IMG/VR virus record: IMGVR_UViG_3300021399_000108
Location: 1 to 64,000 of that record
DNA from: a virus
Taxonomy: Duplodnaviria > Caudoviricetes
Reading direction: 5' to 3' (one strand)
DNA: 64,000 nucleotides
In this document: piece by piece, positions 5,060-64,000 of the stretch
How positions within the stretch are numbered: position 1 is the stretch's first letter
How the letters are laid out: every line of letters starts with the position of its first letter
The notes under the pieces: generated by a model
The model's input: only the letters and a program-made list of their open reading frames with translations
Databases searched by the model: none
What the model was told of the DNA's origin: nothing
Made by a program: the position numbers and the translations under genes

Positions 5060-6060
5060 TTTCCACTTAGTCATATCTAACTACTTTACTATGATAAAGT
5101 GTTATCACTTTAATGTGTTAAAGTTAGACACAACTAACTACTTGACGCAAGATGTAAATTATGGTATAATAAAAATACATCAGGAAGGAGAGATAAGCTG
5201 GAAAGCTGGAAAAAGCTGCATCTAAATACAAATAAGCTGGAAAGCTGGAAGTTACAAAATAAAAGCTAAAATATTTTAAGTGACAAATATTAAATTCTAT
5301 TTTTTAAAATTATCTACAAGCTGCAATATAATACTATATAATTATAAATATTAAACTAAATAAATTATATAATAGTAATTATTATTAATAATATATTTTT
5401 ATTATGCTGGAAAAAATTTTACTAGTTAATATATGATGAATACTGAATAATAAAAGTACATCAAGGAGGAAGAGGTATAAATTATACGTATACGCCCGCA
5501 CGGCGCGAGGGAGCTGGAAAGCTGCATCAGAAGCTGGGCGAGCTGGGAGCTGCGTCAAATACTTGACAAGCTGGAAGCTGGGTTTGCCTAATATGCAGCT
5601 GCTAAACATTTGACAAATTTTTTTAATTTATATTATAATATAATGGGATATTATATAAAAAATTTTATTTTAAAATAAAATCTAATTTTATTATAACATA
5701 ATTTATATTATTTGTCAAGCTGGAAATAATTTTTATTTTATTTTAAATAATTATTTGATTTATTTTAAAATTTATGATATAATTAAATTAAAAATAAAAT
5801 TTATTTATTTTTTTTAAAAACTAATTTTATTATAACATATTTTAAATTATTTGTCAAGTAATAAGCTGCCCGCGCATACGAGCTCTAAGTATAATAATTG
5901 CGGGAGAAATACTTGACATAGAGCTGGGATTGTGGTATAATAAAATTAGTTTTAAATTTATAAAAACTATATTTTCAGTTCATACAATTCTTTGAAATAT
6001 CTTTCATATATATTATGTATATAAAATTACAAATAAAAAATAAGCGCAGTCAAGCTGCGC
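5060..6060. repeat. AT-rich non-coding block with about 18 co-oriented AGCTG motifs (often AAGCTGGAA) and several gene-less promoter-like sites; candidate origin or regulatory region
   Basis: Visible repeats, no credible ORF, 19-bp direct repeat at 5682 and 5821. Confidence 0.55.
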
Positions 6061-6064
6061 TTAT
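6038..6064 (-). terminator. intrinsic terminator of the helicase gene
   Basis: AATAAGCGCAG-TCAAG-CTGCGCTTATT hairpin with a T-run on the minus strand. Confidence 0.7.
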
Positions 6065-7416
6065 TCATTTTCTTTTGCTGCTACGAGCTATAAGAATTCA
6101 TTATCTTTTATTTCTACATCATGCCATTCACCAGTAATATAATAGCATTGCATTATCTTTCCATTTATCTTTTTTCTTTTTTGCTCAACATTATAGCCCA
6201 TTACTGGCAAATAATCTTTTAATTTGTTCCACGTCATTATACGCGCGCAATTTTTATTTTTATTATCAAGCTACGGCACATTCATATATTCAGCTAACTC
6301 GCGGCAAACCTATACAGGCAGCCATGTATTTAAATACTAAGCTGGAATCTCAGGCGCTAAAACTTTCAAGTGTCGTTGATATTCAAATGTTTGGCGCGCT
6401 GCTTGTATTCTATCGACTTGATTAACAGAATCAATAATTACATGGTCAAAGCGTTTATCAACAATTGTGATGCCTCGCGCAAGAGCTCGATTAACAATCA
6501 CAAAATCATACTATGGCGGAATTAAGCCAGTAGCAACAATCATATTATATACTCGTTTTTGCTAGTCATCCATCGGCTTATCAGTATTTTGTAAAGAATG
6601 TAATTCAATAGCGTTAAAGCCTCGCGCACGAGCTGCACGAACAAGCTATTGATTAGGCTCGATTAAAGGAGAAAAGCACCAGTATCCATGTCCTGCCACT
6701 GGGACTAATTGATTTATATGTTCTATAATATTACAAAAATATATATCCTTAGCTACGCGATAGCCCATCTATAATTTGCCTTGATAACTCGCGCTTACTA
6801 ATGATTTATAATAGGTATACGCGCGTTCAGGTGTAGCAGACAAGCCAATACACATGATCTCGCCTAACTAAATAATGTGCTACCATTCGCCTAACAATAT
6901 AAGCGGCATATATTCTTTTTTAGTAGACATCTGTTGAATAACTGAAAGGACTTCTGCATTAGATACATCTCGTCTAGCGAAGTCAGTTTTACGTGCTTTT
7001 ACAAATGCTTGTGTAGCAAAATCAAAAATACTATCACACTAGTCCCAACAGATAACATCAATCTCTTTTAAAAAATCTGTCTCTTGCTTAATAAACTTCA
7101 TGCCTAGCCTCTGATAACACATTACGCCAATTTTATTATTACTCTATCCGTCCCAAGTATTAGGCTAATGCTGCCACATATCATCCGCTTCCATGCAGCT
7201 GTCACTATAATTTGCAAGTAACTAATCCTTTAGAGCGGTAGTATCTACTAGAAATAAAATACGACCAAGTTTACCATCTCTAGTAAATTGCTGTAAATTG
7301 TTCATCGCCCAATAAGTTTTTCCAGTGCGTATGCCGCAATCAATAATATTATAGTCACCGCGACGAAAAATTAATTTTTGTTGCTATTGTAAATCTGTAA
7401 CGGTAAGTTTATTCAT
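6061..7416 (-). CDS. SF2 (DExD) helicase, possible origin-binding protein; 451 aa with about 15 in-frame TAG read as Glu
   Basis: Manual translation: Walker A GIRTGKT, Walker B ICWD(TAG)CD, motif III GLSATPE; GAGGAG RBS; TAA stop; missing from the ORF track because of TAGs. Confidence 0.88.
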
Positions 7417-7569
7417 AGACTCACTCCTCTTTGTCACTTATATTATAGCATAATTTATAATATATGTCAAATATTTGGTAAATATTTTTTTCTAATGAAA
7501 AGTAGAAAATCTATCCTCTATTACATACATTTTACTCTTTTAATTAAAATAAAATTGTAGTAATAAAAA

Positions 7570-37615: not shown

Positions 37616-37796
37616 GGGCCAGCACCGCCCGAAATAGGTGCCGTGGGGAACGCCAGCGCGCATCTGGTGAGGGCGAAAAGGTAGAAGGCACTGCCCGGGT
37701 TCGACTCCCGGCGGAGGAGGGTCGCGGTGTCAGAAAACCCTGATGCACTTAGAGTCTAGCCCAGCTCAAAGGTTGGCCGCCTGAGAGCGCAAATTG

Positions 37797-37868
37797 ATTC
37801 CAGTAGTTTAATGGAGAGAATACTCACCCAGTGGTGAGAGATGTTGGTTCGACCCCAACCTGGTGCCG
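37797..37868 (+). pseudogene. degenerate tRNA-like element
   Basis: D- and T-arms present; 6-nt anticodon loop; weak acceptor stem. Confidence 0.45.
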
Positions 37869-37892
37869 CACATCGTTCGCGGTATATTAAGT

Positions 37893-42949: not shown

Positions 42950-43534
42950 AACTCTTCTCCTTAGTAATTATGAACCAAGTGAAGATGCGCTAATCACGCA
43001 GCTTGGGCTATCCTAATAACAGCGAAAAGAAATTGTTAAGGATACTTACAATTTGACGCCGTTTTACCGAAAGGGAAAAACGATAGACAGAAACTGGCAA
43101 TGTTAAGGATAGGCGCTTGGTAATTCGCAACTAAAAGCATTATTCTTTCCGGCTACATAATAGAAAGCTTTTTGAATAGAAAAGCCGAATCCAGATAAGA
43201 TATTAGTGTGGTAGCTAGTATAAACTCTGGAATACCATAAGTAGCTAATGTCGCTGATGAAAACCAGAAATGGTCTATAAGGAAAGTTTAAAGTAGTAGT
43301 AGCCCAATACAGCGATAATTTGGATAAATTAAAATTTTTAGTGGTATAAAAATTTTCTGAATGATTTGGGTGAGGCTTGGGAGTAATCAAACTCCTTCGT
43401 ACTAGGCGAAAGCGGATTAAAGAAGTTATAAGGTAGCTCCTTATGGCTCAGACTTTAGTTCTACGATGGCTGAATATAGTTGAAGAATTATACAAGTATG
43501 GCGAAGGTCACAGCAATTACTAAGGAGAAGGGTT
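42950..43534 (+). ncRNA. large structured ncRNA, ROOL-like candidate
   Basis: About 585 nt closed by a perfect 16-bp terminal helix (CTTCTCCTTAGTAATT/AATTACTAAGGAGAAG); abuts tRNA-Leu. Confidence 0.6.
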
Positions 43535-43538
43535 ATAT

Positions 43539-43624
43539 GCTGGTATGGTGGAATGGCAGACACCTCAGACTTAAAATCTGATGTCCGTATGGACGTGCCG
43601 GTTCAAGTCCGGCTACCAGCACCA
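43539..43624 (+). tRNA. tRNA-Leu(UAA)
   Basis: Class II cloverleaf; CCA end. Confidence 0.93.
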
Positions 43625-51256: not shown

Positions 51257-51330
51257 TGGGGATTCGTATAACGGGAGTACTTTTGGCTTTGACCCAGACA
51301 GCGAAGGATCGTCACCTTCATCCCCAGCCA
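51257..51330 (+). tRNA. tRNA-Gln(UUG)
   Basis: Cloverleaf; U1-A72; loop CT-TTG-AC; CCA end. Confidence 0.85.
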
Positions 51331-51345
51331 TAAAGGAGAAATAAT

Positions 51346-51822
51346 ATGCCAATACTTTATATGTTATGTGGGCCTAGTGCATCAGGGAAAAGCACCTGGG
51401 CTCATAATTTTATCAGTAAAAATTCACAAAAAGATATACGCTATGTATCACGTGATGAAATACGTTTTTCACTACTGAAAGAAAATGAAAAGTATTTTGC
51501 GCATGAAAAGCAAGTATTTAAAAAATTTGCTGGTACAGTTACACAAACACTTGTAGATGGATTTGATGTAATTGCAGATGCGACGCATTTGAATATCTTT
51601 TCTCGTAAAAAATTAACTAATGCAATTGATAAATTTTATACTGATTATCAAATTATTTACATAATTTTTGATATTCCATTACAAGATATTTTAAGCCGCA
51701 ATCAACAACGTCTAGGACTTGAACAAGTGCCGGAAGAAGAAATAAAAAGAATGTACAATGATTTTTCGCCGCCAATTCACGAAGATAATAGAGAAATTGA
51801 TCGGTATATAGTAAAGGAGTAA
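51346..51822 (+). CDS. polynucleotide kinase-like P-loop protein (AAA_33)
   Basis: GPSASGKST, SRDEIR, DATHL, RNQQR. Confidence 0.85.
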   Translation: MPILYMLCGPSASGKSTWAHNFISKNSQKDIRYVSRDEIRFSLLKENEKYFAHEKQVFKKFAGTVTQTLVDGFDVIADATHLNIFSRKKLTNAIDKFYTDYQIIYIIFDIPLQDILSRNQQRLGLEQVPEEEIKRMYNDFSPPIHEDNREIDRYIVKE

Positions 51823-51826
51823 GAAA

Positions 51827-52438
51827 ATGGAACTATATCTTACTAGTGATACTCACTTTTGTCACACTCCTAATTTTCTTTGGGAACCACGCGGTTTTTC
51901 TTCTGTGGAAGAAATGAATGAAGCTATTGTAGAACGATGGAATAAAGTAGTAAAACCAAATGATCGGGTAATTCATCTTGGTGATGTTATGCTCTCAGAT
52001 ACTGAAAAAGGTCTTGAATATTTCAAGCGGCTTAATGGAGAAATTTGTCTTATTTTCGGGAACCACGACTCCCCTCGGCGGCAAGAAGAACTAGCTAAGC
52101 TTCCTAATGTTATTATTCTTGGATATGCTCATGTATTTAAATATAAAAAGCTTACATTTTATGTTTCTCATTATCCGACTTTAACTGGAAACTATGATGA
52201 AAAACATTTTTCTCAACATGTAATAAATTTGCATGGACATACACATCAACAAGCTAATTTTTTATATCCTAATAATCCATTTATTTATCATGTAGGAGTT
52301 GACTCTCATAATTGTACCCCAGTACATATTGATGAAGTTATTACGGATATTCGGCAGCGCTGGAACGATTTACAGACACTAAAAATTCCAATTCAAGAAT
52401 TGTATATGTATCCAATGAAGGAGAATAAAAATGAATGA
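51827..52438 (+). CDS. calcineurin-like metallophosphoesterase
   Basis: SDTHF, HLGD, GNHD, SHYP, HGHTH. Confidence 0.9.
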   Translation: MELYLTSDTHFCHTPNFLWEPRGFSSVEEMNEAIVERWNKVVKPNDRVIHLGDVMLSDTEKGLEYFKRLNGEICLIFGNHDSPRRQEELAKLPNVIILGYAHVFKYKKLTFYVSHYPTLTGNYDEKHFSQHVINLHGHTHQQANFLYPNNPFIYHVGVDSHNCTPVHIDEVITDIRQRWNDLQTLKIPIQELYMYPMKENKNE

Positions 52439-53243
52439 TATTTCAGCAAAAGTTATAGAAAAGCATAATTGGCTTGTAGCTAATAAAGAAAAATATGGAA
52501 TTGAATATGTAGTAATGTCTGTATTAATCGGTTCACAAAATTATCATTTAGAATCTAATACTAGTGATATTGATGTTTATTCTTTTATTTTCCCGAAATA
52601 TGAAAATTTTATTAAAGATACTAAATTAATTAATTTTGAGCATGAGTTTGAAGATGGTAGCAAAATTGTAGCAAAAGATGTTCGTTTAATTTTCAATCTT
52701 TTACGGAAACCTTCTCCTAATAGTATTGAATGTTTTACAAGTCATTATAAAGTATATAATCCATTATTTGAAAAAGTATTAGAGTCTTATCTTGGCGATG
52801 ATTATACTTTATATTATTTAACTCATGCTAATTATACGAATATGGTAAATGCTATTGCTGGTTGCGCGCGTGGAGTACATGGTAGGAACATGACAATTGG
52901 GAAACAATTTTCACATATTTTACGACTGCATGATATGCTAATTCGTTATCTAGATAGAAAATATAGACCATGTGAATATTTAGAATTAGACCCAGCTAAT
53001 TTACATGTGGCTTTGGCGACGAAATTTAATCTATTGCCTGTAACAGAGCAATCTTGTAAAAATTTAAGTGATACTTTATCTGTATTCGCAAAAAACTTTA
53101 CTCCAACCGTCACAGAAAAAGTACGAGAAGAAGTTGCTAATAAAGTAATTGATGAATTTCAACTTGAACTTACGGAGATTTATTTAGATGATGCAAAAAA
53201 ACATCTGGAAGAAATTAGAAATCGCAATGCCACTAACAGGTAA
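52431..53243 (+). CDS. predicted nucleotidyltransferase (Pol-beta superfamily)
   Basis: GSQNY...SDIDV motif. Confidence 0.75.
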   Translation: MNDISAKVIEKHNWLVANKEKYGIEYVVMSVLIGSQNYHLESNTSDIDVYSFIFPKYENFIKDTKLINFEHEFEDGSKIVAKDVRLIFNLLRKPSPNSIECFTSHYKVYNPLFEKVLESYLGDDYTLYYLTHANYTNMVNAIAGCARGVHGRNMTIGKQFSHILRLHDMLIRYLDRKYRPCEYLELDPANLHVALATKFNLLPVTEQSCKNLSDTLSVFAKNFTPTVTEKVREEVANKVIDEFQLELTEIYLDDAKKHLEEIRNRNATNR

Positions 53244-53487
53244 AGACATACCGCAAATTTGGAAAAGTATACCCGCTGATCAACAAAATTCTATTACTAT
53301 TAGTTTTGAATATGAAAATATTATTTATCTAGCAAATTTAATTACAATCACACAGTATGATACCTCCTTTCTAATAAATTGCCAAGATATAAAAATTTGG
53401 CAATTACAAAAAGCAAGTAATTAAATACTTGCTTTTTTTTATAATTTCTGATATAATATTTATAGAAAAGATAAGGGAGGAATTGAA

Positions 53488-54327
53488 ATGGCTGTCGCGA
53501 AATCTTATGAAAATTACAAAATTATGGGCGAGCCTTATTCTCATGATGGGAAAATGTATGTTATCGTACAGTGCCCTTGTAAACGTTGTGGCGGCAGCGG
53601 CCATTACAGCATGAACGCGATGGGCGATACTACTTGCTATCGCTGTAATGGTATCGGAAAAGAGAATACCGAAGTTCGTTGGTATACCGACAAACAGCGT
53701 GAAGCTCTTGATCGTGCGGCTGAAAAACGTCAGGCCGCCGCAAAAGTAAAGCAAGAGGAACGCCGTGTAAAGTTTGCAGCGCGTAATGCATTTGGTTTCG
53801 GCAAAGCAGGGTTTATTACTCTCATTTGGGGTAATAATGATGAAATTCAAGCATGGCGTGCGGAACTTCCTCTGCATACTGTCTTGTATAACAATGTTTT
53901 TGGCTGGTATATTCCTTCTGATAAAACCCCGGAAATGATTCCAGAGCGTTTTTGTTCTAAGCGCCTTGAATGGGCTGAAATTAAAGATGAATCTGATGCA
54001 GAAGATCTCTCTATGCAGGATCATGCTATTGTACGTAAATATGTATATACTCTTATACATGGCGTAAGCAAGAGCGAATATCAAGGTGAAAAAGATACAT
54101 GGCTGGAAAAAGACGTAACTATTAAAAAGAATATTGCTCTCAGTAGCCAGTATGGTGATTCACACATGCACATTATGGAAGATGCGGATGAAAATGTATA
54201 TGTATGGACTACTGCAAGTAAAAACTTGGAAGTTGGTAGTACAGTACATATGAAAATGAAAGTTAAAGAGCATAAAGAATATGATGGAGTAAAACAAACT
54301 ATTGTATATTATTGTAAGATTAAGTGA
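53488..54327 (+). CDS. DnaJ-type zinc finger plus C-terminal OB-fold-like protein
   Basis: CKRCGGSG, CYRCNGIG; KVKEHKEYDGVKQT. Confidence 0.65.
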   Translation: MAVAKSYENYKIMGEPYSHDGKMYVIVQCPCKRCGGSGHYSMNAMGDTTCYRCNGIGKENTEVRWYTDKQREALDRAAEKRQAAAKVKQEERRVKFAARNAFGFGKAGFITLIWGNNDEIQAWRAELPLHTVLYNNVFGWYIPSDKTPEMIPERFCSKRLEWAEIKDESDAEDLSMQDHAIVRKYVYTLIHGVSKSEYQGEKDTWLEKDVTIKKNIALSSQYGDSHMHIMEDADENVYVWTTASKNLEVGSTVHMKMKVKEHKEYDGVKQTIVYYCKIK

Positions 54328-54863
54328 GGAAATATGACAAACTTAGAAGAAGTAGAATTTACTTGCCCAAATTGTGGTGTGCAATGGACTGAATGGCAGG
54401 ACCCAGATGATGATTGGTTTAAACTAGCTACTAATCAAACATTATGTCCCAATTGTGGACGAATTACAATGCAGCGGATTTTATCTGAATTAAATAAAAA
54501 TAATAATTGAGGTAACTATATGTGGATTGTAATTATATGCTTAGTTATTTTGTTATTTATTGGAGCTACATTAGGTAATCCGCCGCGTAATGGAGGAGAT
54601 TTTTAATGAGTAATGAACATAAAGATTGGCTAAGAGATCAAGCTAGTGATATAATGCTGGACAACGGGATATTAAAAAACATCGAGTATTGTGAATCTTT
54701 TCATGGCGGTTACATCACTATTGGTGAAGATTATGATTGGTGTCGCCGTATATTTTTTATTTGGAATGATGATTTGGATGGTTGGAGTTATAGAGAAATA
54801 AATATTTGACTAGTAATTTAAATTATGATATAATAATTATATCAAAGGAAAGGAAGTAAAAAT

Positions 54864-56252
54864 ATGGCATATTGTGGATATGTAGTAAAGGTTGATCATC
54901 TTCGTAAACATACTAATGCAGATCGTCTGCAAATTGCTACTTTTTTTGGTAATGATACTATCGTTGGTATGAACACTCAATATGGTGATATTGGTGTTTA
55001 TTTCCCTGTTGATGGTCAGCTGTCTGAGCGCTTCTGCGCGGTAAATGACCTGGTGCGCCGCAAGGATGAAAATGGTAAGCAAGTTGGTGGTTATCTTGAT
55101 CCTGATAAGCGCAACATTAAGGCTTTAAAGTTACGTGGCGAAAAGTCTGACGGACTTTATCTGCCTATTACTTGTCTAGCTGACTTCTGTAAAATTTCTG
55201 ATTTAAAGGTTGGCGACACCATCACAGTATTAAATGGTGAAACTATCTGTCAAAAATATATTCCAAAGCGCACTAATCCTGGTTATCGTGGTAGTGGGCG
55301 TAAATCTCAAAAAAGCAAGACTAATTATGCTCCTACTTTTTATGAACATGTGGATACTGAACAGCTAGCTTATAATCTAGATAAGTTTAAGCCAGGGGAT
55401 ACCATTCAACTTACTCTTAAGATGCATGGGACCTCAGGACGTACCGGTTTTCTACCAGTGCTAAAAACTAAACGCACATTCTTAGATAAAATGTTCCATC
55501 GTCATGGTACAGATTATTATGAATATGATTATGTAACTGGCACGCGCCGTGTAGTTCTTGATGGGGTACGTAAGGCCGGGTTCTATGATTCAGATGAATG
55601 GCGGCTTGCTATGGCGGATAAGTTTGCCAATAAGCTTCATAAAGGCGAAATTGTATATTATGAAATTGTTGGTTTCCAGGGACCAAATGGTGCTCCTATT
55701 ATGAGTCAGGTTCAGAACTCTAAGGTAAAGGATCCTGAATTTACTAAACAATATGGTGCAATTACTACTTTCTCTTATGGTTGTGAGCAGGATTCTACTT
55801 ATGTAGAGCCTATGCATGAGACTGGCGTGTGGCATCCTTGCTGCGAAGTATATGTCTATCGTATGACAATGGTCAACAAAGATGGCGATGTGGTAGAATA
55901 TTCTCCCGCACAAATTAAGGAACGTTGTGAGCAAATGGGTGTACATACTGTAATGGAATTTGAAACCTTCATAATTCCTGATATGATTCAACTGCCTGAT
56001 GATGTTGGGTCTTTGCAGGCAGTTGATGCTGGCGAATATGTTCTTCGTAAGGTTGAGCAGTATTTTGATGGCCCTGACCCTATTGGCAAGACTCATGTGC
56101 GCGAAGGTGTAGTTGCTCGTATCCTTAACCGTACTAACTTCGCAGTTTATAAGCACAAGAATTTCTCTTTCAAGGTGTTGGAAGGCATTGCCAAGGATGA
56201 AGCTACTGCACCTGACATCGAAGAAGCACAGGAATTGGAGGAAACTAATTAA
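54864..56252 (+). CDS. RNA ligase, Rnl2 (DRB0094-like) family
   Basis: HTNADRL N-domain, motif I KMHGTS, YYEIVG, REGVV, YKHK. Confidence 0.88.
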   Translation: MAYCGYVVKVDHLRKHTNADRLQIATFFGNDTIVGMNTQYGDIGVYFPVDGQLSERFCAVNDLVRRKDENGKQVGGYLDPDKRNIKALKLRGEKSDGLYLPITCLADFCKISDLKVGDTITVLNGETICQKYIPKRTNPGYRGSGRKSQKSKTNYAPTFYEHVDTEQLAYNLDKFKPGDTIQLTLKMHGTSGRTGFLPVLKTKRTFLDKMFHRHGTDYYEYDYVTGTRRVVLDGVRKAGFYDSDEWRLAMADKFANKLHKGEIVYYEIVGFQGPNGAPIMSQVQNSKVKDPEFTKQYGAITTFSYGCEQDSTYVEPMHETGVWHPCCEVYVYRMTMVNKDGDVVEYSPAQIKERCEQMGVHTVMEFETFIIPDMIQLPDDVGSLQAVDAGEYVLRKVEQYFDGPDPIGKTHVREGVVARILNRTNFAVYKHKNFSFKVLEGIAKDEATAPDIEEAQELEETN

Positions 56253-56655: not shown

Positions 56656-57123
56656 GTGACAATTGATGAATGCCGCCTAAGTATTTAGGCGCATAGGTAG
56701 AAAGTCCGCAAATACATTCGATTTTTTACTGATAGATTAACTACACGTGGAGAACGTCATGATTTAAGTAAATTAGAAGAACCTTAGCTATCTGGTTTTG
56801 CTCAATATACAGATTGTTTAAAAGATTTAACATATGGTTCTCCTGAGTATTATGAAAATTTACAAGCTTTACGTCCTGTGTTAGATCATCATTATGCAGT
56901 GAATCGTCATCATCCTGAGCATTGGAAAAATGGTGTTTCTGAAATGACACTCGTGGATATAATTTAGATGATATGTGATTGGAAAGCATCTAGTGAACGA
57001 CAAAAAGATGGTAATCTATTACTTTCAATAGAAAAAAACGCAGAACGTTTTAATATAGATGATCAATTAAAACAAATTTTAATTAATACTGCTAAAATTT
57101 TAGATGAAATAGATTAGAGATAA
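56656..57123 (+). CDS. DUF5662-like (HD-type) protein, 5 in-frame TAG
   Basis: HDLSKLEEP*L, HHYAVNRHHPEH, LVDII*MICDWKA; GGAGGTG RBS, GTG start; absent from the ORF track. Confidence 0.85.
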
Positions 57124-58212: not shown

Positions 58213-58236
58213 GGCCAGAAGTGGCCTTATTTTGGT

Positions 58237-59766
58237 ATGGAGGTTTCAATGAAAATTAAGTTAAAAATTGGACGTCAAGATAACGCTGATTATTTTGGTG
58301 TTAATGTTGATGATATTATTGAAATTGAATTTGAACGCTATCTAATCGGTGTAGTTGCATCAGAAATTGGCAATAGCAATTTAGAAGCTTGTAAAGCACA
58401 AGCAATAGCTTCACGAACATACGCTATGTCTCGAAATGTATTGATTGGTGAACCAATTTCTGATTCAGCAAATGTTATGGCTTATCGGGCCACACGAGAA
58501 AATCAAAATAAATTTCCTAATGCTTATAAAGCAGTAAATGAAACACAAGGTAAGATACTTACTTATAATCATGTACCAATTCGTGCAGTATATTCTGCAA
58601 ATAATGGCGGGCGAACTACCTCATCAGAAGAACGTTGGGGCAGTGTTTTTCCTTATTTAATCGCGCAAGATGACCCTTGGGATGCAGCAGATGGGCATCC
58701 TAAAAAAGGACATGGAGTAGGATTAAGTCAACTAGGAGCAATATATGCAGGCGCGCATAATATAGATTATAAAACAATTCTTACCTTTTACTACCCAAAT
58801 GCCGTATTAACAGAAAATTACGGCGAGGAGGTAAAAAGTATGAACGTATTTTTAAATGAAAAAGCAAAAAATATTATAGAACTTGCTCGACAACATTTAG
58901 GACATCCTTATGTATACGCGGGTGCAGGTCAATTATGTATTCCTGATAATAGAAGGAAAAAAATTAATAGTACATATCCTGACATTGTAAATAAATGCAA
59001 TGTATTAAATGGTAGTAATACTAATTGTGAAGGATGTAAATATCAAGGTTGCCGCTTTTTCGATTGCCGAGGTTTTACATATTGGATACTTAAACAAAAT
59101 GATGTTAATATTTCCGCAGTTGGCGCTACAACACAATATAATACTGCTGTCTCATGGATAAAACGTGGAAAAATTGAAGACATGCCAAATGTAGTATGCT
59201 GCGTTTTTAAATATAAAGATGATAGTAAACAAATGTCGCATACTGGTTTACATATAGGTAATGGTGTAATTATACATTGTACCGGCGTGAAATTAGGAGA
59301 GGTACAATATGATGCTGTTGGTGGCCAAGGCTGGACACATTTTGCAATTCCAAAAGATTTATATACATTAGATGAAATAAATCAAGCTGAGAAATTAACT
59401 ATTCTTGCTGGATTAAAGAAAGGTGCAACTGGAATTGCTGTCACAGAATTACAACAGAAATTAAATGAATTAGGATATTCTTGTACTGTTGATGGACGTT
59501 ATGGGACCGATACGGCCAATGCTGTAAAACAATTCCAGCAAAAATATCGTTTAACAGCTGACGGAATCGCGGGCGCAATTACAAGAACATTATTAGTTAA
59601 TATAGTGCCTGATAATAATTATACAAAACCTCAAATTAATTTTGAAGCTGAGCAAGTACCTGAATCTATTACAATTATGCCTATTATTAATAATAATAAA
59701 GTTTCACTTATCTTAGACAAAAAATTAGCAGAAGCTTTATATAAAGCATTAAAACAAATATTATAA
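58237..59766 (+). CDS. multidomain cell-wall hydrolase: SpoIID/LytB, NlpC/P60-like and peptidoglycan-binding domains
   Basis: YLIGVVASE...KAQAIASRTYA, GHGVGLSQLGA; FDCRGF...HTGLHIG; LQQKLNELGY...DG.YG..T..AVKQFQ. Confidence 0.88.
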   Translation: MEVSMKIKLKIGRQDNADYFGVNVDDIIEIEFERYLIGVVASEIGNSNLEACKAQAIASRTYAMSRNVLIGEPISDSANVMAYRATRENQNKFPNAYKAVNETQGKILTYNHVPIRAVYSANNGGRTTSSEERWGSVFPYLIAQDDPWDAADGHPKKGHGVGLSQLGAIYAGAHNIDYKTILTFYYPNAVLTENYGEEVKSMNVFLNEKAKNIIELARQHLGHPYVYAGAGQLCIPDNRRKKINSTYPDIVNKCNVLNGSNTNCEGCKYQGCRFFDCRGFTYWILKQNDVNISAVGATTQYNTAVSWIKRGKIEDMPNVVCCVFKYKDDSKQMSHTGLHIGNGVIIHCTGVKLGEVQYDAVGGQGWTHFAIPKDLYTLDEINQAEKLTILAGLKKGATGIAVTELQQKLNELGYSCTVDGRYGTDTANAVKQFQQKYRLTADGIAGAITRTLLVNIVPDNNYTKPQINFEAEQVPESITIMPIINNNKVSLILDKKLAEALYKALKQIL

Positions 59767-59782
59767 TAAAGGAGGTAAAAAT

Positions 59783-62700
59783 ATGCCATTTAGTCATATA
59801 TATAAAAAAAATAATAAATGGAGATTTGGGTAGGCCATTACTCCGCAAGAATTAAATGCGATTAGTGATACCTTAGAATAGGTTACTACTGTACTAACTA
59901 ATACAAATAGCTTAAATAATATCAAAGATGGAACAGGAACTGGATCAATTATAGAAGGATTACTAAATTTAACTCCAGATACATATACTGAAGAACAAGA
60001 TGCAAATGCCAATATCGCGAATGGTAATTATGCTCATGCCGAAGGTTTCAGTACAACAGCATCAGGAGAAATAAGTCATGCCGAAGGTGCATATACTTCT
60101 AGTATTGGTAAATCAAGTCACGCTGAAGGAAAATCTACAATCAGTAATGGAGAAAGTAGTCATGTTGAAGGTGAACTTTCTGGTTCCGTTGGAAAATGGT
60201 CTCATGCAGAAGGATACAGATCTCATACATATGGAGAGGCCGCTCATGCTTAGGGTTACAATACTAATGCTCATAATACAGGTGCTCATGCGGAGGGCTC
60301 AGGCGCATATGCCAGCGGAGTAGGTGCCCATGCTTAGGGATATCAATCTCAGGCTAATAAAGAAGGCAGCCATGCTGAAGGATATAGTACACATGCCACT
60401 AAAATGGGCGCTCATGCAGAAGGTATCTTAAGCACAGCTTCTGGCCTGTATTCTCATGCTGAAGGACTAAATACAGAAGCTTCAGCAGAAAGTTCTCATG
60501 CTGAAGGAAATACCACAAAAGCTAATAAAAAAGCACAACATGTGTTTGGACGTTTTAATGTTGCAGAAGATGGTACAACAAATGATTATGGAACTTATGT
60601 TGAGATTGTTGGTAATGGTACATCAACTACTCAATGTTCTAATGCTCGTACTTTAGATTGGCAGGGCAATGAAGTATTAGCTGGTGGAATAACATTAGGA
60701 AAAGGAACAGATACAGAAATTAATATTACACCTACACTTGCTCAAACTATTATGAGTAGTGTAGAAGATACGAATATGTTAAAAAATAGTATTTTAGATT
60801 TAACTTCTTTAAATAGCACTGGAATTGATTTTATACATGATACATATACTGGTGAAACACAAATAAATATATATAAAAATTTACCCTCGGGTGAATACAA
60901 TTTAACTATAGACAGCATAGTAAGTGATGATACTGATGCTTCTACATGTCAATTATTATTTACTAATCGTAATGCATCTACTACAGTATTAGTATTATTA
61001 TTATCACGTGATACCTTAATTAATAATACTATTACACTGACATCAGATGTCGAACGTGTTATATTATATGCATCAAATAGTTATCCTCATAGTATGGGAG
61101 ATACATTTACTTTTAATAATATTCAAATTAGTTCAAGTTCTAAATTAGTAAATGCTATTAATAAACTTAGTAATGATATATAGCAATTTAAAAATGATAA
61201 TCGAGAAATAGTATTTAGTGGTGAACTATTTCAAGGAACACAATCTTTAAGAGTAAATACACATATTGATCCAGGCGAATATATTTTACATTGTGGCCCT
61301 ACAATTAGTTCTGATACAGACAGCTCTTGGTCAGGTATATGGTTTGGTAAAGGTAATACTGATGAAATCACTATAACTTTTCCTCGTGATGAGGTATCAA
61401 AATATATTAAATTTAATAATGAAGTTACTGATATTGTTTTTTGGGCATCTGATACTTTTTTTAAAGGTGTGAATGATACTTTTAAATTTCAGAATGTTTG
61501 GATTGAAAAAATAAATTCTTTACCCGAAACATTAAAACTACCAGAAACATCAACATTATATACATTTACTGGTTCCACTGTATCTAATCAAGATATACGC
61601 TATAATCATCATATTTTACCTGGCAGTAAGATTGAAATTAAATCTTCTACCACTGATAATCAAAGTGGCGTACTATAGGTACGATGCTATATGCCAGACA
61701 ATCCTGATTATTATAGACAACATGGCTGGGATATGAGTATAAACAGTACTTATTCATTTATCGCACAAGCAGAATATACAGCAATTATATTCAGAACAGT
61801 ACAATCCTATAATAATGTTAAAATTGATATTACCATTAACGATGTTTTTTCTGCTCATACACGATTATGTGCGTTAGAATAGCGGTTCCAAGAAGAATCA
61901 TCTGCATATATTATTAAAAATAAAAATTATTCTGGCACTACTTTACTTGAAATACCACAATAGTTCCCAGAAGGTGATTACTTAATTTCAGTGGAAAATA
62001 TAACTTCTACTGATACAGATACTGATAGTTGTTTAGTATTTTTTACTAGTAATGACGCTAATGTAGAACGTGCAAGAGTATTACTAGAACGTGGAGTGTC
62101 ACAAACATATCAAATATATATTCCTGCTGATACTCATAAAATGTTTTTATTCGCAAGTTCAACAGGTTATGCCGACAGTAGAAATGATCAATTTAAATAC
62201 ACTAATTTAACCATTCAAAAATATGATACTACTAGTAATCGTACTCCAATTTTAACGCCTCTTGGCTTTGAATGGACTACACATCCGTTATTTGGACATT
62301 TGTTTCGTTCTGAAAGAGGAATTGAATGTGATTTTGATATTACGAATTACAAACCTGTCGCTAACTCAACAGTATGGGTGTCTCCATCTGGAGATGATAG
62401 CTTTACTGGAATTGATTCTGTCCATCCCTTAAAATCTCTTAAAACCGCATTAAACCGAAAAAATGTTGATACAATTATCGTGGAAGATGGATTTTATACT
62501 ATTTCTATGGCACCACAAGAAATTAATACTTTAGACCATTCTGTAGCAATTCTCGCCGCAGAAAATGCTCATCCCGTTATTTCTACTAACGCAGGACCAC
62601 ATACCTTCGCTAAACTAGGTGAATATTCTTATGTTTATTCAGTTAAAGTTAATAGTAATTGTGTATGGGACATTCCTAATGCGAGGCCGTTATCTTATGT

Positions 62701-63511
62701 TGGTTCTATTGCATTAGTTAATAGTACTCCTTCATCTTATTTTACTGATGGCACATACACTTATGTTCATACTAAAGACGGGTCCGCACCAACAAATAAT
62801 ATTAGATGCTGCCCCCAAGCAGAAAACTGTAAACTTATAACCGAAGGTCGCATTACAGTATATCTCGAAGGTTTGACTTTTTGTGGCGGTAATCAAGGCG
62901 CTTTCCATGCGTGTAATAGCGTAGCCAATATTCGTCCTCGAATATATGGAAAAGATTGTATATTCGTTGGGGCTGTCGGCGGTGGAGCCTGTTTTTTAGA
63001 AGGATGTGAAAGTATTATGCAAGGCTGTGAAGCATGTGAATCTGTTAATGATGGATTCGGTATTCATAGAAATAATACTAAAGTACATACTTCTCCTTAT
63101 GCGATTGAAATTAATTGTTAGGGACACCATAATGGTAGACCGGCATAGGGTGGATATCTTACAAAAAATGGTAGTACATCACACGCTGGCGCGAAAGTAA
63201 TTAGAGTTAATGGCTCATATCATCATAATTATGGTCCTAATGTTGGTGATGTACATAATAATACTCAAAGTTGGAATTTAGGTTGTCAAGCATATTGTTC
63301 GACCGTAGGCACTGATCAGCGGAACAATGTTGATTATATAATTTCAGATGGTACTACTCCAAAAATGTGGCTAGATACATGTGCAGGCTACGGTTCTTTA
63401 CATTCTTTAGTTGTTGTAGGAGAACCTAATGGTAATGTACAAGCTTTTGTAAAAAATAGTGTTTTATCCAATGTTGTAGTTGAAGGTACTGGCACATTAA
63501 TTGCTTATTAA
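59783..63511 (+). CDS. large tail fibre/adhesin (1242 aa) with 12 HxEG repeats and a C-terminal beta-helix; multiple in-frame TAG
   Basis: One frame joins track ORFs 60404, 61469, 61691 and 61991; AAGGAGGT RBS; TAA stop. Confidence 0.85.
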
Positions 63512-63533
63512 TATTAATAAATTAGTTTAATAT

Positions 63534-63562
63534 TTGACTTTTCTTTTAATTTTTGATATAAT
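63534..63562 (+). promoter_or_regulatory. sigmaA-type promoter for ORF 63596 and the suppressor tRNA
   Basis: TTGACT-17nt-TATAAT with extended -10 TG. Confidence 0.8.
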
Positions 63563-63595
63563 ATATATAGAAAAATAAAAAAGGAGAAATAATAA

Positions 63596-63823
63596 ATGGG
63601 TAAACTATTTTTTGAAAATTCTCAAGGTAGCCGTCGAGAAATTGCTTCTAATATTTCTAGAGAAGATTGTGGAAAAGAAATTCAAAAGTTTATTCAAGAT
63701 CATAATAAAGGCAAGCCGAAAGATAAGAAGTTTCATTCATACTATACCCGTACTTGGGAAGAAAATGGAGAAACAGTATTTGATGTAGGCTCATGGAGCG
63801 AATTTTTCTATTATAAAAATTAA
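63596..63823 (+). CDS. conserved phage hypothetical protein
   Basis: SYYTRTW...FDVGSWSEFF. Confidence 0.8.
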   Translation: MGKLFFENSQGSRREIASNISREDCGKEIQKFIQDHNKGKPKDKKFHSYYTRTWEENGETVFDVGSWSEFFYYKN

Positions 63824-63844
63824 TCGCGGGTAATACCCGCGTGT

Positions 63845-63919
63845 GGCGGTGTCTTCTAGTGGTTAGGAAAGCGGTCTCTAAAACCGCGAACCTGAGTTCG
63901 ATTCTCAGTACCGCTACCA
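63845..63919 (+). tRNA. amber suppressor tRNA (anticodon CUA) with a tRNA-Glu-type body
   Basis: GGCGGTG/TACCGCT acceptor, GCGGT-CT-CTA-AA-ACCGC anticodon arm, 4-nt variable loop, TTCGATT T-loop, encoded CCA. Confidence 0.93.
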
Positions 63920-63928
63920 ATTATATTG

Positions 63929-63956
63929 TAAGGATGACTAATTATAGTCATCCTTA
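63929..63956 (+). terminator. hairpin downstream of the suppressor tRNA
   Basis: TAAGGATGACTA-ATTA-TAGTCATCCTTA. Confidence 0.6.
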
Positions 63957-64000
63957 TATTATATTAGTGAAAATTATCAAAATTAATCGCTAATCATACT

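Follow-up and report, generated by a model that had tools for sequence, protein, structure and literature searches.

At the right-hand end of the window, i.e. the 64,000-nt stretch of DNA that was analysed, a large rumen phage carries a 75-nt tRNA gene whose anticodon, CUA, reads the stop codon TAG. The window is the first 64 kb of a single 163,520-bp phage contig of 32.7% G+C, which CheckV places at 93% complete, and all 14 of the tRNAs of the contig lie within it. The tRNA gene sits in a lysis-associated neighbourhood (Table 1), is the only tRNA(CUA) gene in the genome, and is called both by ARAGORN and by Rfam RF00005 (56.6 bits against a gathering score of 29). ARAGORN labels it 'Pyl', but that label comes from the anticodon alone; the short D loop, 3-nt variable loop and long anticodon stem of tRNA-Pyl are not seen, and the cloverleaf is canonical with an 8-nt D loop.

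Table 1. Features at and around the tRNA(CUA) locus, and loci used for comparison (window coordinates)
Position	Strand	Feature	Remarks
63845..63919	+	tRNA(CUA), 75 nt	tRNA-Glu(CUC)-type body; CCA encoded
63878..63880	+	Anticodon CTA (reads UAG)	Loop CUCUAAA; differs from native tRNA-Glu(CUC) loops CUCUCAA/CUCUCAC mainly by C36 to A
63534..63562	+	sigmaA/sigma70-like promoter, candidate for the 75-aa ORF plus the tRNA	TTGACT, 17-nt spacer, TG, TATAAT; 11 of 12; consensus match only
63596..63823	+	75-aa ORF without TAG, between the promoter and the tRNA	No Pfam family
63825..63841	.	G+C-rich 7-bp hairpin, 3 nt upstream of the tRNA 5' end	Scores as a terminator on the minus strand; may be a processing or insulating element on the plus strand
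63927..63958	+	Terminator-like hairpin with a T-rich tail	Directly after the tRNA; consensus match only
59783..63511	+	1242-aa tail-fibre/hydrolase-like ORF with 10 in-frame TAGs	12-copy sHAEG repeat; its TAG codons at 60251-60253 and 60335-60337
6064..7437	-	SF2 helicase (ResIII domain) with 15 in-frame TAGs	TAG at 7039-7041 occupies the catalytic Glu of motif II (D-E-x-D)
51257..51330	+	tRNA-Gln(UUG) of the phage, comparator	U1-A72, G73, a different D arm
58213..63970	+	About 5.7 kb absent between the flanking orthologues in relative G001	Endolysin-like gene (SpoIID/NlpC_P60/PG_binding_1), the 1242-aa ORF and the tRNA

Architecture and conservation of the tRNA

A parse of the sequence by hand and the ARAGORN bracket string agree on the structure. 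The acceptor stem is G1.U72, G2-C71, C3-G70, G4-C69, G5-C68, U6-A67, G7.U66, followed by U8 and C9; the D stem is U10-A25, U11-A24, C12-G23, U13.G22; and the D loop is the 8-nt AGUGGUUA, which has no base 17 and an extra U20a. A26 follows, the variable loop is the 4-nt GAAC, giving A46 and no base 47, the T loop is UUCGAUU, and the discriminator is A73. The universal positions U8, A14, G18G19, A21, U33, G53, T54-C56, A58 and C61 are all present. What an earlier note on this sequence had observed, namely a complete cloverleaf with these D-arm and variable-loop features and a body unlike that of the phage's own tRNA-Gln(UUG), is thus confirmed in full. One correction is needed: G1.U72 with A73 is not peculiar to this tRNA, as several isotypes in this phage family have it (Ile, Leu, Arg, Val, Glu), as do 7 of 26 native Clostridia tRNA-Glu, and we therefore rejected this combination as a marker of Glu identity.

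The gene is more than a chance cloverleaf. Although searches of IMG/VR with the upstream ORF and with an exact pattern of the tRNA returned nothing, use of the neighbouring DNA ligase as a handle led to three sub-clade contigs from different studies of rumen metagenomes, one of them the same 172,895-bp scaffold that carries a Glu-type terminase, and each has a homologous 75-nt tRNA(CUA). Across the four copies, pairing is retained at 100% of stem positions, and five pairs (28-42, 29-41, 49-65, 50-64, 52-62) change on both sides, compared with 0-2 in slid controls. Acceptor stem positions 1-6, A73, CCA, the whole D stem and nearly all of the D loop, the anticodon loop and A45-A46-C48 are invariant; this pattern is what one expects if identity resides in the D arm, the variable region and the acceptor end. 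Could the tRNA nevertheless be a bystander or non-functional, with TAG read by a host suppressor, another phage factor or read-through? Some recoded phages do lack suppressor tRNAs, and in the recoded relative G001 (one of the five complete relatives described below) ARAGORN found no tRNA(CUA). However, the gene is conserved with compensatory changes in every sub-clade contig that spans the locus, its universal positions are intact, and the meaning of TAG changes together with the type of suppressor across the family, such that we consider this explanation very unlikely.

To ask which native tRNAs the body resembles, we built a covariance model from the four copies and searched 151 Clostridia genomes. 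Of the 30 best native matches, 20 are tRNA-Glu(CUC), 6 are tRNA-Glu(UUC), 4 are tRNA-Trp (which share the anticodon-arm sequence) and none is tRNA-Gln, so the body does not cluster with tRNA-Gln; such clustering is what the earlier note had set as a refutation of its reading, and that test is passed. The six best hits, at 67-73 bits, are all Glu(CUC) with U8, C9, a GUCU/GGAC D stem, an 8-nt D loop, A26, a 4-nt variable loop and A73, whereas the best non-Glu match scores 64.5 bits. Isotype discrimination is modest within a single genome: in the genome G006, tRNA-Glu(UUC) scores 57.0 bits and another tRNA, which we take by position and length to be tRNA-Trp, scores 57.1. Plain or segment-wise sequence identity to phage or G006 tRNAs does not single out Glu and was not used as support, and the GUCU/GGAC-type D stem with a 4-nt variable loop also occurs in one phage tRNA-Arg. 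In other words, a Glu-type body is well supported but not proven. Its features U11-A24, U13.G22:A46 and the absence of base 47, which are invariant in all four copies, match the published GluRS identity set (PMC9976931). Of the anticodon-loop determinants of that set, U34, U35, C36 and A37, the tRNA keeps U35 and A37 and has C34, which occurs in natural Glu(CUC) isoacceptors, but C36, a strong determinant for E. coli GluRS, is replaced by A36 (PMC9976931); it is therefore not a Glu isoacceptor by anticodon. This change from C36 to A is the tRNA-side counterpart of a GAG-to-TAG codon change. Compared with the native tRNA-Glu(CUC) of Clostridia, the phage tRNA also shares U11-A24, C12-G23, U13.G22, the GGUUA of the D loop, C32, U33, C34, U35, A37 and A46, and G1.U72 with some of them, but U10-A25 replaces G10-C25 and the stems have diverged.

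TAG as a sense codon and its placement

The recoding is real. Reading TAG as sense opens ORFs of 5398, 1675, 1661 and 1252 aa, and the frames abut as genes do. Among ORFs of at least 100 aa conserved in relatives, 64 of 134 contain 326 in-frame TAGs in total, and in none of the 165 ORFs whose alignment reaches the C-terminus of a homologue does a TAG coincide with that end. A Pfam search of nine TAG-bearing late proteins gave nothing usable, but PHROGs identified a YonF-type large terminase and a portal among the recoded genes, and the structural module is SPbeta-like, with YonB, YomU, YomV and YomW hits in relatives.

The terminase has hundreds of full-length homologues at 74-98% identity. 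The closest database proteins show Q at the TAG sites, which at first looked like evidence for Gln; however, their contigs translate to those proteins only with TAG = Q, and the Q residues are a table-15 convention and not evidence. Relatives among phages in GenBank are only about 30% identical and were not used for codon inference. We therefore read codons directly from the DNA of 80 IMG/VR relatives by query-anchored pairwise projection. The 12 in-gene TAGs of this phage fall on columns whose consensus reads DEEEEEEEEQSV: GAA/GAG at eight sites, GAT/GAA at one, Val at one, and mixed TAG/CAA/CAG or TAG/TCT/CAA at two. Several of these columns are 85-97% conserved Glu in strongly conserved contexts. 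The relatives' own TAGs fall mainly on Gln columns.

For the whole genome, we compared all ORFs with those of five complete relatives of 167-183 kb, masking TAG as X and counting codon pairs only in well-aligned, gap-free contexts. TAG in this phage pairs with Glu 168 times (GAA 115, GAG 53), Asp 27 and Gln 14 of 287. With an empirical substitution table, Glu is the best reading and Gln trails by 328.6 nats, a gap that is inflated because the five relatives are phylogenetically related; the identical procedure returns Gln for each of the five relatives, which serves as an internal control. The partner profile of TAG (E.59, D.09, Q.05) is almost the same as that of the phage's own Glu codons (E.68, D.08, Q.03) and does not mirror that of its Gln codons (Q.57, E.08). 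Where relatives are at least 80% Glu, this phage has TAG at 21 of 553 sites; where they are at least 80% Gln, it has TAG at 0 of 181; and where they have TAG, it has CAA/CAG at 19 of 30. The totals balance only one way: Glu + TAG in this phage roughly equals the relatives' Glu, and its Gln roughly equals the relatives' Gln + TAG. Additionally, sub-clade relatives from other rumen metagenomes interchange TAG with GAA/GAG in both directions (for example, TAG in the relative L164 falls on GAA of this phage 32 times and on CAA 3 times), and un-recoded relatives show GAA 18-23 at the TAG sites of this phage.

Two further tests do not depend on statistics. The SF2 helicase has Walker A GIRTGKT and motif II VICWD-TAG-CD, and orthologues in four relatives read DECD there; because the helicase has no sequence relative in the PDB, motif II was anchored on these orthologues. 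The motif II (Walker B) Glu is the catalytic base of these ATPases, and its replacement with Gln is the standard hydrolysis-dead substitution. In the ORF nearest upstream of the tRNA apart from the 75-aa ORF, i.e. the 1242-aa ORF, the Glu of the sHAEG repeat is encoded by GAA nine times, GAG once and TAG twice, and there is no HAQG copy.

These data bear on the most conventional alternative, ordinary phage code 15, in which the tRNA would end up carrying Gln either through direct mischarging by host GlnRS, which favours CUA-anticodon tRNAs with a weak 1-72 pair, or through Glu charging followed by amidation. In favour of this view, the recoded phages in the papers we searched and this phage's relatives use TAG = Gln, candidate hosts have GlnRS, G1.U72 is a weak pair, G2-C71 and U35 fit part of the GlnRS identity set (PMC9976931), and gene callers already translate this clade with Q. 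However, TAG in this phage avoids Gln columns and sits on conserved Glu columns, the phage uses CAA/CAG where relatives have Gln or TAG, and a helicase with Gln at the DExD catalytic position would be inactive. Moreover, the tRNA lacks G73, G10, G3-C70 and U1-A72, and it carries the U20a and non-U1-A72 antideterminants for the amidotransferase, whose determinant is U1-A72 and whose antideterminants are G1-C72 and U20a (PMC9976931). We regard TAG = Gln in this phage as very unlikely. Ambiguous decoding, in which TAG sites receive a mixture of Glu and Gln, is also unlikely, although a minor Gln component cannot be excluded: the anticodon CUA resembles the Gln anticodon CUG, GlnRS accepts amber suppressors derived from other tRNAs (PMC9976931), 8 of 124 TAG sites lie on Gln-majority columns, and a few TAG positions are shared with Gln-type relatives. 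Pure Glu decoding explains these, and the roughly 5% of aligned pairs that fall on Gln, as tolerated Gln-to-Glu differences or as non-coding columns, since our ORFs run from stop to stop and a few shared TAG columns are conserved non-coding sequence upstream of true starts. The match between the partner profiles of TAG and of the Glu codons leaves no excess of Gln to be explained, and the placement of TAG on a catalytic Glu argues that Glu insertion is efficient.

Family context, decoding model and related codes

Four of the five complete relatives carry a tRNA(CUA) of a different kind, 86-93 nt long with an extra arm, a U1 or A1 start and G73; in one relative it shares the acceptor stem with that phage's own tRNA-Gln, and in two (G003 and G004) the body is Trp-like. 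In a terminase tree, the Glu-type genomes (this phage, L164 and L165) form one clade with SH-aLRT 98, and the other 79 sequences split into 59 with Gln-type TAGs, 19 with none, and L056 (= G003), which the terminase-only label calls Glu-type (E3 Q2 o3) but which is Gln-type genome-wide. The nearest neighbours of the clade lack TAG, although that node is weak (78) and the root is arbitrary, and these neighbours are essentially un-recoded across about 20 kb. This phage has no remnant of a Gln-type suppressor, and it lacks the tRNA-Glu(UUC) gene that four of the five relatives carry. The CAA/CAG codons at the relatives' TAG sites fit an origin from either a Gln-type or an un-recoded ancestor.

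Taken together, we favour, with a probability of roughly 0.85, a model in which this is a functional amber-suppressor tRNA derived from a tRNA-Glu(CUC)-type gene by an anticodon change from CUC to CUA. In this view, a host glutamyl-tRNA synthetase charges it with glutamate through the retained body determinants together with U35 and A37, and it inserts Glu at the roughly 330 in-frame TAG codons in about half of the conserved genes of the phage (the structural and packaging genes, a helicase and the tail fibre), while TAA and TGA remain the stops. UAG = Glu would define a small clade of large siphoviruses of rumen Firmicutes with an SPbeta-like structural module, inside a family whose other recoded members read UAG as Gln with unrelated, Gln-like suppressor tRNAs. 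The analysis itself establishes the tRNA gene with its conservation and covariation, the recoding, and the Glu-like placement of TAG; aminoacylation with Glu by the host GluRS, including acceptance of A36, is inferred from its outcome in TAG placement, expression from the upstream sigmaA-like promoter is inferred from a consensus match only, and the evolutionary route is also inferred. It is likely, though less secure than the decoding itself, that the amber codon was captured by a tRNA-Glu(CUC) mutated at position 36, such that the same freed stop codon acquired two different meanings among close relatives, possibly through a TAG-poor intermediate, given the un-recoded nearest neighbours in the terminase tree.

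The interpretation of the earlier note is partly supported. It had proposed that host or phage GluRS charges the tRNA with Glu, by way of a non-discriminating GluRS relaxed at position 36 such as occurs in many Firmicutes, and that GatCAB ignores the product, so that TAG = Glu. The Glu-type body and the meaning of TAG are supported, but the charging route is not supported as written. No GluRS/GlnRS-family (PF00749) gene and no RF-1 domain (PF00472) gene, and hence no class-I release factor or RF2, was found in the phage contig, which CheckV places at 93% complete, so only a host enzyme is available for charging. Nothing points to Bacillus subtilis, in which the earlier note had proposed an amber-reporter test; the relatives come from rumen metagenomes, and related phage contigs are binned with two Acutalibacteraceae MAGs and one uncultured Bacilli MAG from rumen, which is only a weak host hint. 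Those three genomes, and the two that hold the best-matching tRNA-Glu(CUC), all encode a bona fide GlnRS (TIGR00440, 644-742 bits), and GatB was detected in three of the five. In such hosts Gln-tRNA is made directly; a non-discriminating GluRS and avoidance of GatCAB are therefore neither needed nor evidenced, although they are not contradicted, because the tRNA does carry the antideterminants.

The papers searched on recoded phages assign TAG to Gln, including for phAss-1, a distant relative of this phage, and a literature search for TAG or UAG read as glutamate returned no phage or bacterial case, which within the literature searched is not proof of absence; apparent cases of TAG to Glu read "glutamine", and glutamate appeared only without a named source, in a 2026 survey that attributes TAA/TAG-to-glutamate signals to contaminating sequences. 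If correct, this would be the first amber reassignment to an amino acid other than Gln reported for phages or bacteria, apart from the context-dependent pyrrolysine case. Phage amber recoding by a suppressor tRNA is itself already described; what would be new here is the amino-acid meaning, together with a different origin of the tRNA. Stop-codon recoding in phages is treated as having fixed meanings, TAG = Gln and TGA = Trp, and gene callers and databases hard-wire table 15; on this reading, the present case shows that the meaning depends on which tRNA captured the codon and can differ between related phages, which bears on how genetic codes evolve (codon capture versus ambiguous intermediates) and offers a natural experiment on GluRS tolerance at anticodon position 36. 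There is also an immediate practical consequence: public protein collections already contain this clade's proteins with Gln written at every TAG (the entries P0001, P0002 and P0008 translate only with TAG = Q or show Q at all TAG sites), including at catalytic glutamates, which would mislead structure and function prediction. A compact natural Glu-inserting amber suppressor may also be useful as a tool.

Several systems provide points of comparison. As in the table-15 phages (crAss-like and Lak phages, phAss-1 and its relatives), the phage encodes a tRNA(CUA) and no dedicated synthetase, in-frame TAGs are concentrated in structural, packaging and lysis-associated genes while many early genes are TAG-free, and the host presumably uses the standard code; here, however, the amino acid is Glu on present evidence, the suppressor has a tRNA-Glu(CUC)-type body and not a Gln-like one, with G1.U72 and A73 in place of U1-A72 and G73, no RF2 gene was found, and the difference arises inside one phage family whose other members are Gln-type. 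In the peritrich ciliate nuclear code (NCBI table 30), UAG is translated as glutamate by a tRNA with a matching anticodon, but that code is eukaryotic and genome-wide and TAA is also Glu, whereas here TAA is the main stop, only part of the genes use TAG, and a virus acts in a host with the standard code. In E. coli laboratory amber suppressors made from tRNA genes by anticodon change, such as su7 from tRNA-Trp, which is charged with Gln, a single anticodon substitution likewise creates a UAG reader whose identity depends on how far the synthetase relies on the anticodon (PMC9976931). The phage tRNA is natural, fixed in a lineage, and appears to keep its parental Glu identity; the Trp-like suppressors of relatives G003 and G004 resemble the su7 case more closely.

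RNA genes in the phage tRNA region

A full-length ROOL RNA (Rfam RF03087, 313.9 bits) is found inside the tRNA region of this phage, G000, directly upstream of tRNA-Leu(UAA). A tRNA-like gene is also present, which ARAGORN reports with a 2-nt "anticodon" (a 6-nt loop) and which is absent from the Rfam hits at the gathering score; is this gene degenerate, or maybe simply an unusual tRNA? Either may be the case, and the relative G002 has a similar oddity. Across the whole genome, G000 has no tRNA-Glu(UUC) gene, while four of five relatives have one or two tRNA-Glu genes, and its GAG share of Glu codons (0.15) is lower than in the relatives (0.17-0.31). Additionally, G1.U72 with A73 recurs in many isotypes of this phage family (Ile-UAU, Leu-CAA, Arg, Val, Glu) when all six phage genomes are compared, and looks like a family-wide acceptor-end signature of unknown meaning.

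Coordinates of additional features in G000 and related phage sequences (L numbers are our locus labels)
Genome	Positions	Strand	Feature
G000	42951-43530	+	ROOL RNA
G000	43539-43624		tRNA-Leu(UAA)
G000	37796-37869	+	tRNA-like gene, 6-nt loop
G002	64854-64925		similar oddity
G003	56805-56895 (L128)		tRNA(CUA)
G004	5318-5410 (L145)	complement	tRNA(CUA)
G002	55157-55242 (L137)		tRNA(CUA)
G005	51768-51854 (L157)	complement	tRNA(CUA)
G000	58213-63970		about 5.7 kb absent between the flanking orthologues in G001
G002	52841-54673		partial homologue of the 1242-aa ORF
L169	14758-19810		permease and adenine deaminase-like genes
L170	15412-21113		permease and adenine deaminase-like genes

Suppressors of the Gln-type relatives and database translations

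The tRNA(CUA) genes of the Gln-type relatives are 86-93 nt long with a class-II-like extra arm. The G003 and G004 copies have a tRNA-Trp-like D arm and anticodon arm, which would be CCA to CUA in one step, recalling the E. coli su7 suppressor, which is charged with Gln; G004's copy shares its acceptor stem with that phage's own tRNA-Gln(UUG). The relative G001 (L117-L125) reads TAG as Gln by the codon test, but ARAGORN finds no tRNA(CUA) in its 179 kb. In public protein collections, the terminases of the G000 clade (P0001, P0002 and P0008) are on record translated under table 15, with Gln at every TAG, and by the evidence here these residues should be Glu.

Gene neighborhoods of the suppressor and of the sub-clade relatives

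The stretch that is absent between the flanking orthologues in G001 contains an endolysin-like gene, the 1242-aa sHAEG-repeat ORF and the tRNA(CUA). In G002, the partial homologue of that ORF lies just upstream of G002's own Gln-type suppressor, and in sub-clade relatives the tRNA lies upstream, not downstream, of the large ORF. Sub-clade relatives (L169 and L170) also carry two xanthine/uracil permease genes and an adenine deaminase-like gene downstream of the ligase/ClpP/PhoH block, and these may be purine-salvage auxiliary genes.
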